Shown one piece after another: positions 52,024-64,000 of a stretch of 64,000 bases of DNA. The translations under genes were made by a program, and so were the position numbers. The stretch lies in IMG/VR virus record IMGVR_UViG_3300027759_000044. One strand, 5' to 3'. Position 1 is the stretch's first letter, and every line of letters begins with the position of its first letter. The notes under the pieces were generated by a model, which was not told the DNA's origin, did not search any database, and saw nothing but the letters and a program-made list of their open reading frames with translations. The stretch is from a virus. Taxonomy: Duplodnaviria; Caudoviricetes.

Positions 52024-52914
52024 TTATTTCACATTTTTGATAGCAGAATCTACATGAGCCTTAAGAGTAGCTGGCCCAAATTTTGATGGTTCAATGTGTT
52101 CCGTTGTAAAATATTCAACTGTTGAAGTATCTGTTAAATATTTTTGTATTAAATTACCCCAAAAGATATGTACTTCTGTATTAGTATTATTTGGCAGCAC
52201 TATAGCAAAACCATCGTTAGATTCCCAATTTGGATATCTTTTGTATAAATCTGTGGTTTCATTAATTTTTACAGTAGTAGCTATCAATACTATTTTCTTA
52301 GAATCAATTTGAGATTTTACTATATTGAGTGGAACTACTGCAACATCAATATGCCCTCCTAATAAATCATTGAGTAGAGGATTTGCTCCCTTATAAGGAA
52401 TGAAGTCCGGCGGTGTTGTTTTATTATGTAAAAATAATTGGTTTAGTGCAATTTTTTGTGCTGGTGCACCAAATGCAAAACTTTTTGTTATCTTTTTAGC
52501 TTTGATTTCAACTTCTAAATCATTAATAGTTTTAATTCCACTATTTGTATGTGTGATTACAGCCATTGTCGGCTTGCTAATCATAGAGATGTAATCAAAT
52601 TGGTAATCGGGATATTTGTTTTTGTACGTAGCAATACCTGCTATAGTAACAAATCCTATGGTTGATCCATTATTTTTTGCGGCCGCGATTTCAGACAAAC
52701 CAATTAAACTATCTGCACCGGGTTTGTATGTTGGAATAATTACCAATCCACTAGTTTCTTCTATATATTTTTGAAAATGTTTGAATGCAATATCTGTTCC
52801 GCCCCCCGGTGGAAATGGTATAATCATTTTTACAGAATTTTTATCTGAATTAAATAACTGGGCTGAACATAAAGATGATATTGTAAGTAAAAATATTGTT
52901 ATAAATTTTTTCAT
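52024..52914 (-). CDS. Bug/TctC tripartite tricarboxylate transporter substrate-binding protein
   Basis: Signal peptide; IIPFPPGGGTD, KPGA...IG, PYKGA...NDLLGGHID. Confidence 0.9.
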   Translation of the reverse strand: MKKFITIFLLTISSLCSAQLFNSDKNSVKMIIPFPPGGGTDIAFKHFQKYIEETSGLVIIPTYKPGADSLIGLSEIAAAKNNGSTIGFVTIAGIATYKNKYPDYQFDYISMISKPTMAVITHTNSGIKTINDLEVEIKAKKITKSFAFGAPAQKIALNQLFLHNKTTPPDFIPYKGANPLLNDLLGGHIDVAVVPLNIVKSQIDSKKIVLIATTVKINETTDLYKRYPNWESNDGFAIVLPNNTNTEVHIFWGNLIQKYLTDTSTVEYFTTEHIEPSKFGPATLKAHVDSAIKNVK

Positions 52915-54041
52915 ATGTCGGTTACATAAAAGTATTTTGACGAGGTTACCTCATATACTTGAGGACCCGTGGAAGATTTTTTTGTTAGAAATCTATCGTC
53001 AATCATATTTACCCTAGTAACAACATTGTGAAAATATTTCTCTCTAATAGTAGACAATTCCGGATGTTCATAAAACCAAAAGAATTTATCTGTTCTACTA
53101 GCACTATTTGGTTTGTCCGCTTGAAATCGATTATCCCAATTACTATATAATAAACTCCTAGACAAATCATTTTGAAACTGGTTAACTATGACTTTTTCTT
53201 CAGGTGGCCTAGTTGTAATATTCCATAGAAATTTTTGCTTATCAGGATTTGCTTTATAATATAACGCTAATTGATATGCCTGTTCAAAAGGTAGTATAGG
53301 GAAATCAGGCGTCCAATAAAAACACTCAGTATTTTCTGAATCAATGTTTCCACGTCCAGCCTGATCCAAACATACATCAGTAAAAAACATATAAATCTTT
53401 TGTTTATGAGTAAACAATAATGGTTTATCTATGCCATATATATGCGATACTTTTTTACTGTTAAAATACAGATTACTATCAGACATTACACTGTTTAGTA
53501 AAATACCACCACCCCTTACAAAATTCAATTTTTCAAAAATTTCATCAACATTTAACGTATCAATTGATTCAGTGTAATCTTTAATTGTTATTTTAACGTT
53601 TGGTTTGTTTTTTGCCATCCATTCAAGTATCGGTTTAATAGCATAATTCCATTCACTCCAGTAGTTTCTTGCTGAGGTATCACTACTGTTCGGGGAATAG
53701 AACATACCATCCATTAATGTTTTGGGCCACTTTACACAAACCTCATCTAGTTTGATGTCATTATCAACAAAGGTGCGTAGTATGTTGTGGCTATCTGCGC
53801 CACCACTATAATACAATATCAAATAATCATATGTATCCCTGAGTTGTTGCGCTCTATCTCTATACAACTCATTAAGTGAACGTTTGCCTAACTGAGACCG
53901 ATCAAAGTTATTCCACACGTTATTGTGATAGTGAAAATTTATTGGAAAGGTAGTTGGGGATGCACTTACTAATGCATCATATTTGTTCAAATATTTTTGA
54001 TCATTAACTGTCCAATAGCCATATTTCTCTGTTTGAATCAT
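52911..54041 (-). CDS. PP-loop adenine nucleotide alpha-hydrolase-like protein
   Basis: YYSGGADSHN motif. Confidence 0.75.
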   Translation of the reverse strand: MIQTEKYGYWTVNDQKYLNKYDALVSASPTTFPINFHYHNNVWNNFDRSQLGKRSLNELYRDRAQQLRDTYDYLILYYSGGADSHNILRTFVDNDIKLDEVCVKWPKTLMDGMFYSPNSSDTSARNYWSEWNYAIKPILEWMAKNKPNVKITIKDYTESIDTLNVDEIFEKLNFVRGGGILLNSVMSDSNLYFNSKKVSHIYGIDKPLLFTHKQKIYMFFTDVCLDQAGRGNIDSENTECFYWTPDFPILPFEQAYQLALYYKANPDKQKFLWNITTRPPEEKVIVNQFQNDLSRSLLYSNWDNRFQADKPNSASRTDKFFWFYEHPELSTIREKYFHNVVTRVNMIDDRFLTKKSSTGPQVYEVTSSKYFYVTDI

Positions 54042-54055
54042 ACCTAATAGGAGGT

Positions 54056-54355
54056 CTATTCAAATATTTTAGGGCCGATGGTAATTCCAACTGCTTCGTT
54101 GTATGCATTTCTTATATCCCAGTATGGAGTAAGATCAGGATCTACGTCATATTCGTCAAAATCTTCACGACTGGCCCAAACTCCCTCATAAAACATTTGC
54201 AATCCATCTTCGCTAAATGAAACGTTATATGAAATATGCTTACCCGAATCTATATATGTTTGAAGTTTTAATTTAAATTCTGTAGATGATAGTATATTAC
54301 CATGCCATGGTATATCTACTGATGGTCTTGTATATTGTCTTTTAATTTTAATCAT
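54056..54355 (-). CDS. Hypothetical protein (start 54355)
   Basis: AGGAGG RBS. Confidence 0.7.
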   Translation of the reverse strand: MIKIKRQYTRPSVDIPWHGNILSSTEFKLKLQTYIDSGKHISYNVSFSEDGLQMFYEGVWASREDFDEYDVDPDLTPYWDIRNAYNEAVGITIGPKIFE

Positions 54356-54372
54356 TAACTTACCTCCTGTTA

Positions 54373-62147: not shown

Positions 62148-62734
62148 AAATTTCCTCCAATTGGTAATATATTCCTATATTCTTGTTTTAAATAATTACA
62201 TCTTACAATTGAATCTTCTGGTAATAGTAGTCTCTTATATAGCAATTCCCATGCATTTACATAAAAACATTTATTTTTTGATGGTACAATGAATTCATCA
62301 AAATATCCATAACGCTCATTGTTATATTTACTCCAATGGAATCTTCTTAAAAGTCTAGTATGTCTGCTATGAGTCAATGTATAAAACTTTAATCTTCCAT
62401 TACTTTCGTTGTATTTTATAACTTCATCTAATACTTCTTTTAATAAATTATTATCGCCGGAGCTTCTATATAAAGTATAAAACCAACTTGGTTCTTCTAC
62501 ACTTTCATAAAATGATATTAATGCTTTTACTATTCCATCTTTCACATAGCCAAACGCATGATAATTATTCAAATCACTCAAATAGTTAGCACAAAATATA
62601 TCATAAGTTAGTGCATTTAACCCGGTATTTTCTACTTGATATACCTTATCACTATCAATTCCCATATATTTTGAATGTTTAAAAATATCTCTAACAGCAA
62701 GTGCATGTTTACTTGTTAATTTAACAACCGACAT
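62144..62734 (-). CDS. Hypothetical protein, possible GNAT-like acyltransferase (start 62734)
   Basis: Beta-strand/helix pattern AFGY..DG.V.A.IS...LL..V...I.Y....G; weak. Confidence 0.45.
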   Translation of the reverse strand: MSVVKLTSKHALAVRDIFKHSKYMGIDSDKVYQVENTGLNALTYDIFCANYLSDLNNYHAFGYVKDGIVKALISFYESVEEPSWFYTLYRSSGDNNLLKEVLDEVIKYNESNGRLKFYTLTHSRHTRLLRRFHWSKYNNERYGYFDEFIVPSKNKCFYVNAWELLYKRLLLPEDSIVRCNYLKQEYRNILPIGGNL

Positions 62735-63650
62735 AGTTTTCCCCAAATAATTGTGCGTACAAATCATCTATAAAGATTCCGTCTAAACTAGATTCTAATC
62801 TTTTGGTATGACTTAAATATAATGAATTGTAGGTTTCTCCGTTAAAACCCATCAATTTTTCATAACCGTGTGTTTTTACTTTATCTAAGATATCAGGCAT
62901 TAATTCTTTAAGAATATCATTCTTAGAACTTACACTAGATGTTTTATAATTATATCGTTCCGTAATTAGCCATTGTATTTTAGGGTGCTCTAAGTAATAT
63001 CCCATCATTTCGGGAGTATAGCTAAACCATTCATTGACTAATGGAATACCATATTTTAAACTAAATCGCATTGCACTAGCATCTTCATTTTCTCTGAAAC
63101 AATAATACCATTTACTGCCATTTAGAAAAGTATGTCTACGTAACATCATTTCCCCGCCCATAATTGCCGGTAATTTCATTTGACGAATATGATGATAAAC
63201 CGTTAAATATGCCATTTGTCTACATTGTATATCTGCGGCAAATTCATATGCTTGACCACTATGATAAAAATCCTTTACATCAAATTCAACTGATTCCAAT
63301 TTCATACCTATATCATCCGTGATACGTTGTGCTATTTGATAGTCAGAAATGTTGTAATCATTTTTAAATTTAATAAAAACAACTCTAGGGTTTACTCCAA
63401 TATGCTTAAAGGCTCGCAATACTATTTCACTATCAGTGCCGCCGCTAAACATTACTACAAAATCATTGCCATATTCTTTGTGTATCAAGTCAGCAGTACG
63501 ATATTGTTCTTCTAACCAATTACTTGTTTTATAGTAATCCAGGTCTATTTTACCTACATTCACTTTAAATTTATCACAAGGTGTCTCACGATTACCAAAT
63601 AATATATCGCCAATTGAATACGTTAAGTGATTTTTATATGTGAAGTTCAT
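62721..63650 (-). CDS. PP-loop adenine nucleotide alpha-hydrolase-like protein
   Basis: MFSGGTDSE; MGGE; K..GYE. Confidence 0.75.
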   Translation of the reverse strand: MNFTYKNHLTYSIGDILFGNRETPCDKFKVNVGKIDLDYYKTSNWLEEQYRTADLIHKEYGNDFVVMFSGGTDSEIVLRAFKHIGVNPRVVFIKFKNDYNISDYQIAQRITDDIGMKLESVEFDVKDFYHSGQAYEFAADIQCRQMAYLTVYHHIRQMKLPAIMGGEMMLRRHTFLNGSKWYYCFRENEDASAMRFSLKYGIPLVNEWFSYTPEMMGYYLEHPKIQWLITERYNYKTSSVSSKNDILKELMPDILDKVKTHGYEKLMGFNGETYNSLYLSHTKRLESSLDGIFIDDLYAQLFGENYVGC

Positions 63651-63865
63651 TTCATAAGCGACATTAACTCAGCAACAGTGGATGCTTTTGCATCATCACT
63701 TACTTCATTAGCAGTAACTTCCTCATAATACACTTGTAACTCAACTACATCTAATGAGTCCAAACCTACTTCTAAAAGATTATCCGTCGGTGATAATTTA
63801 ATAGTTTTTTTAAAAAGCGTTAAAACTGCATCTTCAATAAATTTAATTTTTTCTTGGTCTGTCAT
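63647..63865 (-). CDS. Acyl carrier protein
   Basis: GLDSLD phosphopantetheine site; 72 aa, acidic. Confidence 0.9.
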   Translation of the reverse strand: MTDQEKIKFIEDAVLTLFKKTIKLSPTDNLLEVGLDSLDVVELQVYYEEVTANEVSDDAKASTVAELMSLMK

Positions 63866-64000
63866 TTTATGGTCCTATCTAATTCTGCTACATATTGTTC
63901 AGTGTAGTATATATTCTTTTTTCCTATGGGTTTGAATTTTCTATAAATATCGGGCCATTGATTAAACATTGCAGGTCTTTTGCCTTCATTTGCCCGTACA
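63862..64000 (-). CDS. C-terminal fragment of gene upstream of ACP (truncated by window)
   Basis: Open frame ...MFNQWPDIYRKFKPIGKK...DRTIK*; ATGA overlap with ACP. Confidence 0.65.
   Translation of the reverse strand, partial: VRANEGKRPAMFNQWPDIYRKFKPIGKKNIYYTEQYVAELDRTIK

Follow-up and report, generated by a model that had tools for sequence, protein, structure and literature searches.

Does the gene-dense end of this phage sequence encode a single biosynthetic pathway, or a set of enzymes that each act alone? The DNA in question (the window) is a stretch of 64,000 nucleotides from IMG/VR virus record IMGVR_UViG_3300027759_000044 (Duplodnaviria; Caudoviricetes). Sixteen genes fill its positions 52024–63865, on the minus strand throughout except for one oxygenase-like gene (oxP200), and the gene junctions are either overlaps of 4 to 23 nucleotides (nt) or gaps of no more than 45 nt. 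An earlier note, made from the letters alone, had described the region as a late-expressed biosynthetic cluster, centred on an acyl carrier protein (ACP), with a desaturated, hydroxylated acyl-amide as its product; the genes that it named are all there. Our own reading, tentative and given somewhat less than an even chance, is that an uncultured T4-like jumbo phage of fresh water carries here a modular "tailoring-enzyme island", which would make or edit an acyl compound that is amide-linked, unsaturated, and hydroxylated and is probably a lipid of membranes. The fixed heart of the island, as judged from its overlapping reading frames, is a translationally coupled operon of five genes: u182, a fatty acid synthase (FAS)-type ACP, an AsnB-like PP-loop protein (pp1), a GNAT-fold protein (X), and a membrane desaturase of the delta-9/stearoyl-CoA desaturase (SCD) type. 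The observations on which this reading is built are family and fold assignments, a conserved gene order, gene fusions, and a joint duplication.

Eighteen IMG/VR loci encode pp1 at 57 to 84% identity, and in all of them, with gene order read by tblastn, the order u182-ACP-pp1-X-desaturase is kept as far as the contigs reach, with overlaps of 4 to 14 nt. X is present in 17 of 17 loci, the desaturase comes after X in each of the 16 whose contigs extend to it, and the ACP and u182 are each found in 16 of the 18. The core thus appears in every relative whose contig extends far enough, and is not a chance row of open reading frames (ORFs). The other eleven cluster genes are patchy among the same loci. 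Even L019 to L021, the nearest relatives (94% identity), share the whole order minus pp3, one of the PP-loop genes; in these relatives (L019:11380-11382) the cupin gene follows directly after pp2 (compare window 55020-55907), which means that a PP-loop paralogue has recently been either gained or lost.

The genes that surround the core are nonetheless of recurring kinds. Among 103 ORFs lying 3' of the core in 11 non-redundant relatives there are eight further desaturases, eight PF05118 hydroxylases, seven radical S-adenosylmethionine (SAM) enzymes, three TauD proteins, three GNATs, two cupins, one TctC protein, and one glycosyltransferase. Searches seeded with pp2 and pp4 recovered other phage contigs with h199-pp2-pp3, cupin-DABB-like, and pp4-Bug blocks (genes described below), and these adjoin pp1-like, desaturase, and u182-like genes in varying order. 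Such re-association of sub-modules points to a functional link, and its recurrence in independently retrieved loci exceeds what common descent of a single region would produce; turnover of the individual genes, however, argues against one fixed 16-step pathway. The single pathway proposed earlier therefore survives as a recurrent association and not as a fixed set of 16 genes, since accessory genes vary and pp3 is missing from L019 to L021.

The first gene of the core, u182, runs off the window, and the suggestion that the operon continues past its end proved correct: positions 63862..64000 (minus strand) hold the 3' end of the gene, the last 44 codons and the stop, and this fragment, when translated, aligns with the C-terminal end of the protein encoded at L019:2851-3399 and in 15 further loci, where the conserved protein is 182 amino acids (aa) long. 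It heads the core, and its stop overlaps the ACP start (ATGA). Upstream retrieval, which had been proposed as a check, shows that in L019 to L021 u182 is preceded by genes for DUF2452, IscU, rubrerythrin, and a 42-aa rubredoxin. We considered rubredoxin as a conserved partner and rejected it, as it is restricted to these nearest relatives. In L006 (5405-9219) the genes upstream of u182 encode a radical SAM enzyme, AhpC, a CMD-family protein, and a double methyltransferase; because the L006 and L019 sets differ, the upstream flank is also a swap zone of redox genes. Family and profile searches with u182 found no meaningful match to GNAT families or to Protein Data Bank (PDB) sequences, and hhalign found no similarity between u182 and either X or a true GNAT domain. 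Its language-model (Atlas feature) neighbours are GNAT clusters, at 0.94 to 0.97, and it is only by these neighbours that u182 is GNAT-like.

The second gene encodes the ACP (63647..63865, minus strand; 72 aa), with a PF00550 PP-binding match of 24.0 bits against a cut-off of 20.8, residues D36-S37-L38 invariant across 13 homologues, and a profile that matches solved FAS-type ACPs (E 3e-11). Its identification in the earlier note is therefore sound, as is that of the desaturase (61353..62147, minus strand; 264 aa), which exceeds the PF00487 cut-off (46.1 versus 29.7 bits), matches SCD1 (4ymk; E 3e-13), and has the three His boxes HRVFSHR, HRGYHH, and HNNHHH at residues 59, 96, and 231. The desaturase falls below equivalog level (NF049918 DesA, 49.6 bits versus a cut-off of 400). 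The curated cut-offs passed in the region are PF00550, PF00487, Radical_SAM, SPASM, NF033640, Cupin_2, TctC, and Asp_Arg_Hydrox (oxP200), whereas all four PP-loop proteins fail those of Pfam. In L014 (9237-10004), u182 and the ACP are naturally fused in a single open frame of 255 aa without interruption, unless the stop was removed by an assembly artefact, which may be the case. A 264-kb relative (74% complete) and three fragments yielded neither a phosphopantetheinyl transferase (PPTase; PF01648) nor a ketosynthase, and because no PPTase was found in that relative, a host enzyme would be needed to phosphopantetheinylate the ACP.

The third core gene, pp1 (62721..63650, minus strand; 309 aa), has the PP-loop motif SGGTDS at residue 69, and its class is assigned by fold as an AsnB-type synthetase domain. 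The AlphaFold model (alignment A1; pLDDT 96) matches asparagine synthetase (VIA-align Z 15.4), beta-lactam synthetase (Z 14.8), and carbapenam synthetase (Z 14.2), with 259 residues aligned to human ASNS at a root mean square deviation of 3.9 (Z 15.4). The hydroxyamidotransferase TsnB9 (Z 11.3), LarE (Z 10.5), and NAD synthetase (Z ∼10) match less well, and the nearest AFDB clusters are standalone "asparagine synthetase domain" proteins (TM 0.68 to 0.70). By sequence, pp1 is below the cut-offs of both PF00733 (14.7 versus 21 bits) and TIGR01536 (23 versus 267 bits). It has no GATase match, and its 309 residues cover the synthetase part only. The family is large (770 protein clusters when grouped at 90% identity, and 511 when grouped at 50%), and a tblastn search with pp1 over 50,697 GenBank phage records found no match; in prokaryote genomes a narrower alignment yielded one pattern and no confirmed match, which is a weak test of absence. 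As an array of 25 tRNA genes (44 to 51.3 kb of the window) adjoins the cluster, we also considered a role in tRNA modification (TilS/MnmA/QueC-like), and rejected it because pp1 is AsnB-like (Z 15 versus 8 to 9 for TilS, TtuA, and Cap9) and is partnered by a GNAT and a desaturase.

X (62144..62734, minus strand) is 196 aa long when counted from Met12 of the longest ORF, its start being placed at MSVVKL by alignment A2. The earlier suggestion of a possible GNAT holds by fold and not by sequence: the best 50 PDB matches of the AlphaFold model (pLDDT 78) are all GNATs, with TM by target up to 0.76, and Swiss-Prot RimI is matched at TM 0.76. Searches against Pfam, NCBIfam, and PDB sequences gave no match, hhalign against a bona fide GNAT domain gave a probability below 1%, and no Q/RxxGxG/A coenzyme A (CoA)-binding loop is visible for X in alignment A2.

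The association between pp1 and the GNAT-fold protein extends well beyond the main clade. The two genes are adjacent even at 29 to 33% identity in the unrelated phage contigs L023 and L024 (in L023, pp1 and the X homologue are followed by two desaturases and a PhyH oxygenase), and L014 carries a second pp1-X pair, duplicated jointly. A GNAT domain is present in four of ten long pp1 homologues, with an Acetyltransf_1 match at E 4e-11 in P0356; the GNAT-PP-loop fusions are P0356, P0341, P0369, and AFDB A0A7C5F8H2. Because adjacency is kept at low identity, the pair has been duplicated jointly, and fusions occur, pp1 and its GNAT partner are the unit under strongest selection, and the ACP, u182, and desaturase join this unit across the main clade. 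A complex prediction of pp1 and X with the ACP as partner scored 0.01, which counts neither for nor against binding.

How might these proteins work together? We propose that the host AcpS would prime the phage ACP, which would then carry a fatty-acyl group, and that one or both of the GNAT-fold proteins would transfer an acyl group to an amine acceptor. The pp1 protein would adenylate a carboxylate with ATP and then close an amide bond; a less conventional alternative is that it would load the ACP thiol. The desaturase would introduce a cis double bond into the chain, and the variable iron(II)/2-oxoglutarate (Fe/2OG) hydroxylases, the twitch radical SAM enzyme, the AsnB-like paralogues with the cupin, and the DABB-like protein would decorate the product, with the Bug/TctC protein importing, perhaps, a precursor that is a carboxylate or an amino acid. 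What results would be an unsaturated and hydroxylated acyl compound with an amide linkage, most likely a lipid of the infected-cell membrane; both the product and its target, whether virion, membrane, or signal, are purely our inference. A bolder version is that pp1 and its GNAT partner represent a novel type of ligase, linked to a carrier protein and forming amides or thioesters, that would serve the synthesis of a phage-made phosphorus-free N-acyl (aminolipid-like) membrane lipid during infection; we consider this unlikely, and offer it as speculation.

Among the papers searched we found none that describes a phage module with an ACP, an AsnB-like protein, a GNAT, and a desaturase. The nearest mechanistic precedent is the thiotemplated polyyne/alkyne cassettes (JamABC; polyyne cay/pgn), in which a ligase, a dedicated ACP, membrane desaturases acting on ACP-bound chains, a thioesterase, and a rubredoxin/ferritin helper are combined (PMC9828172). 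The phage operon likewise has a dedicated ACP, an adenylating enzyme, and one or more membrane di-iron desaturases, with several desaturase paralogues in relatives and a ferritin-like protein and rubredoxin nearby in the closest of them. It differs in that the adenylating enzyme is a PP-loop AsnB-type domain rather than an ANL-family fatty acyl-AMP ligase, in lacking a recognised thioesterase, in having two constant GNAT-fold members, in the SCD/delta-9-like character of its desaturase, and in being carried by a phage. The comparison with asparagine, beta-lactam, and carbapenam synthetases, with which pp1 shares the PP-loop and the whole-domain fold (Z 14 to 15 over ∼250 residues), suggests AsnB-class chemistry, that is, adenylation of a carboxylate followed by amide formation; unlike those enzymes, pp1 has no N-terminal Ntn glutaminase, is only 10 to 15% identical, and is paired or fused with a GNAT. 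Aminolipid synthesis by OlsB/OlsA/OlsC-LpxO/OlsE offers a further parallel, in the N-acylation from acyl-ACP by an acyltransferase fold, the PF05118 hydroxylases, and the membrane di-iron enzyme. There is, however, no sequence match to OlsB, OlsA, or PlsC-type proteins, X is like a small N-acetyltransferase, and an ATP-dependent amide synthetase such as pp1 is foreign to the known Ols pathway.

Among phages, all pelagimyophages are reported to have PF05118 hydroxylases as core genes, with a stearoyl-CoA desaturase in their freshwater group (PMC7029224). The islands of aquatic T4-like myophages resemble ours in their co-stranded delta-9-type desaturase, PF05118, TauD, GNAT, and radical-SAM-like genes, and differ in having neither an ACP nor an AsnB-like PP-loop partner. 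We note that the cultured Pelagibacter phage Mosig (MT647606.1 54771-65283) has an island, all in one orientation, in which PF05118 hydroxylases and a desaturase stand with an aminotransferase, an FMN reductase, a peroxiredoxin, TauD, a methylase, and a GNAT, and which may give an experimental handle on this island type. "ACP modules" of a different make-up are described in flavobacterial jumbophages (PMC13573597). A desaturase match in "Acinetobacter phage MD-2021a" (CAKLQH020000002.1 50246-60869) was not used, because its surroundings (btuB, trpC, ugpQ, baeSR) look like bacterial chromosome. Descriptions of phage auxiliary genes for lipids have until now concerned enzymes that stand singly, the cyanophage desaturase being an example. 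The module seen here comprises several enzymes together with a carrier protein of its own, and a large family of jumbo phages, abundant in fresh water, conserves it. Were it to make a distinct lipid or acyl-amide, phages would be synthesising new membrane components beyond adjusting those of the host, AsnB-like enzymes of a large branch that is now orphan, along with the GNATs that partner them, would gain a substrate and a role, and many Fe/2OG oxygenases of aquatic T4-like phages would have a concrete function.

Several observations weigh against an acyl-amide product. It is through the ACP and the desaturase alone that these enzymes are tied to lipid, and both can be missing: the ACP is absent from L016/L017, L023, and L024, all of which keep pp1 and the GNAT, and the desaturase is absent from L024. 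X resembles N-acetyltransferases of small molecules and of proteins, RimI and SpeG among them, and the top 50 PDB matches are named acetyltransferases, none of them an N-acyl amino-acid synthase. Of the cited SCD-type enzymes, SCD1 uses acyl-CoA and cyanophage vFAD uses chains bound in glycerolipids (PMC5776448); the phage desaturase may therefore act alone on host membranes, as is thought for vFAD. No thioesterase family is represented among the Pfam matches of the 16 cluster genes or the 103 neighbours, several of these proteins being unassigned, and no ANL ligase adjoins the core, as none of the cluster genes has an AMP-binding match and the sole PF00501 (AMP-binding) gene of the 264-kb relative lies ∼180 kb from the module. 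Rubrerythrin and rubredoxin, found upstream in the nearest relatives only, are absent in L001 to L018. A joint profile of the paralogous oxygenases ox196 and oxP200 matches PDB 7v4f "Beta-hydroxylase" (E 2e-5) and proline hydroxylases, accessory content differs among relatives, as the absence of pp3 at 94% identity illustrates, and the Mosig island, with its desaturase, PF05118, TauD, and GNAT genes, includes neither an ACP gene nor one for a PP-loop protein. Of the acyl-amide proposal, the chemistry (a carrier, an adenylating amide former, acyl transfer, desaturation, and hydroxylation) fits the folds, and a single, fixed, ACP-centred pathway is not supported; since the more distant versions lack the ACP, the term "ACP-centred" is an overstatement.

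A possible, if doubtful, alternative is that the region is a loose island of auxiliary genes, hyperplastic and low in GC (0.303, versus 0.367 in the remaining window, in keeping with the AT-richness noted earlier by eye), where aquatic T4-like phages would gather accessory genes; each enzyme would act alone on a host target, and only pp1 and X would be true partners. The desaturase would then act on membrane lipids, Bug in uptake, and the oxygenases on host proteins or metabolites, with the ACP supplementing host fatty-acid synthesis. The coming and going of pp3 and other accessory genes fits this, as do the unlike upstream neighbours in L006 and L019, the PF05118 and desaturase genes of pelagimyophages, the like island in Mosig, and the single viral delta-9 desaturases that are known to be active on their own (PMC5776448). 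It accounts poorly for five core genes that overlap and never separate across 57 to 94% identity, for the u182-ACP and GNAT-pp1 fusions, and for sub-modules that come together again in varied orders.

Two further explanations depart from lipid altogether. The enzymes could modify a phage or host protein, in the manner of ribosomally synthesised and post-translationally modified peptides (RiPPs): the AsnB-like proteins would amidate or cyclise Asp/Glu as lasso-peptide cyclases do, PF05118 enzymes would hydroxylate Asp/Asn, the radical SAM enzyme would introduce cross-links, and the GNATs would acetylate. Glutaminase-less AsnB folds, SPASM/twitch radical SAM enzymes, and oxygenases of peptide-hydroxylase families are the typical tool kit, and the nearest match of X is RimI, a protein N-acetyltransferase. 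We think this quite improbable nonetheless, with neither a small precursor ORF nor free intergenic room between 52 and 64 kb, no role in such pathways for a FAS-type ACP or a membrane desaturase, and a radical SAM enzyme and most oxygenases that are not conserved with the core. Less probable still, and to our minds very unlikely, is the tailoring of a nonulosonic-acid-like or other sugar of the virion or host envelope, in which the PP-loop proteins would serve as WbuX/PseA-type N-acetyl-sugar amidotransferases and the GNATs would N-acylate amino sugars. For pp1 there is a weak match to TIGR03573 WbuX (E 0.0085), but at 15.6 bits it is far below the cut-off of 203, and the structural neighbours of pp1 are AsnB and beta-lactam synthetase. 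The window does encode a nucleotide-sugar epimerase and a sugar C-methyltransferase at 20 to 22 kb, and there is the one glycosyltransferase among the 103 neighbours in relatives; the sugar genes, however, are 30 kb away on the opposite strand, and the constant desaturase is left unexplained.

Of the accessory genes in the window, the oxygenases lie closest to the core, and the earlier count of four hydroxylases is firm for one: oxP200 (60158..60760, plus strand), an Asp/Asn beta-hydroxylase-family (PF05118) oxygenase, passes the Asp_Arg_Hydrox cut-off (28 versus 22.6 bits), whereas the other three are candidates from an HxD...H triad, invariant in their small families, and weak matches. These are ox199 (60757..61356, minus strand), a putative Fe/2OG oxygenase in which H124, D126, and H179 are invariant in four homologues, with weak matches to 2OG-FeII_Oxy_5 and TIGR02466; ox196 (59544..60134, minus strand), a paralogue of oxP200 (blastp E 8e-4) with invariant H128, D130, and H177 and a probable start at 60119, the version in relatives being 191 aa; and ox195 (57642..58229, minus strand), a putative oxygenase of a virus-only family, with H78, D80, and H156 invariant in seven homologues. 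Profile searches of PDB sequences with ox195 and ox199 found nothing meaningful; ox195 has no family or PDB match, and its Atlas lead to 2OG oxygenases scores just 0.89. It is the most frequent accessory gene, present in 5 of the 18 loci. We note that the paralogues oxP200 and ox196 diverge from each other, with only 23 to 38 nt between their starts (60119-60158), and that oxP200 converges on the end of the core operon with a 4-nt overlap. Between ox196 and ox195 lies the gene for the radical SAM enzyme (58207..59532, minus strand), which has an N-terminal twitch/SPASM domain and the motif CNQKCVMC at residue 143; it was rightly recognised before, as NF033640 (271 bits versus a cut-off of 170), Radical_SAM, and SPASM are all over their cut-offs.

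The remaining genes follow a predicted T4-late-promoter-like TATAAATA box (57602..57609, minus strand), the region's single coding-strand copy of this motif, which precedes the ATG of h199 by 5 nt. Because the box ends so close to the ATG, a transcript begun there would be all but leaderless. Over the window the motif shows no enrichment (8 found versus 15.6 expected). The box is kept in L019, where a ∼19-nt tandem duplication (9640-9678; compare window 57597-57625) holds a TA(T)AAATAGATTT box before the h199 homologue. The label "late-expressed", which derives from one promoter-like motif, is overstated.

Behind the box the three further PP-loop proteins, the cupin, and Bug are present as had been described, supported by motifs, profile matches, and the Cupin_2 and TctC cut-offs. 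The first gene, h199 (56997..57596, minus strand), has no family match in Pfam or NCBIfam and heads the h199-pp2-pp3 triplet, which is kept in L031, L033, and L034 at 36 to 53% identity. It is followed on the same strand by pp2 (55891..57006; 371 aa; SGGIDS), whose PP-loop region matches the pp1-family profile at E 8e-10, and by pp3 (55020..55907), a member of the pp1 family with a degenerate SGIDS loop and a match to the A1 profile at E 2e-15 over 180 positions. The cupin (54373..55023, minus strand; Cupin_2, 31.9 bits versus a cut-off of 27.2) precedes a small alpha+beta protein of 99 aa (54056..54355, minus strand), possibly DABB-like from a weak Dabb match (E 0.08); the pair recurs in L011, L015, L019-21, and L031-34, and the position of the DABB-like protein is invariably 3' of the cupin or beside pp4. 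The last two genes, also on the minus strand and kept as a pair in L027 and L010, encode pp4 (52911..54041; 376 aa), an Asn-synthase-like PP-loop protein (SGGADS; pp1-family profile E 3e-9) whose Atlas structure matches Asn_synthase clusters at TM 0.52 to 0.58, and a TctC/Bug-family periplasmic solute-binding protein (52024..52914; PF03401, 53.7 bits versus a cut-off of 27), the N-terminus of which (MKKFITIFLLTISSLCSA) is hydrophobic and signal-peptide-like by eye.

A megablast search with 12 kb against GenBank phages found no match, and a PHROGs search with the cluster proteins returned almost nothing. DNA of the 54 to 64 kb stretch occurs in freshwater and aquatic metagenome runs from at least 13 studies; no RNA is on record among the holders listed for a 9.9-kb stretch, and no RNA runs are listed for the 1.7-kb core. 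Elsewhere the window encodes a giant protein with fibronectin repeats, a tail-fibre-like protein, and virion-protein families. The epimerase and the sugar C-methyltransferase, the latter with three domains, lie in a second block of low GC content (0.30) at window positions 20372-25327, which suggests that this block holds glycan synthesis genes.

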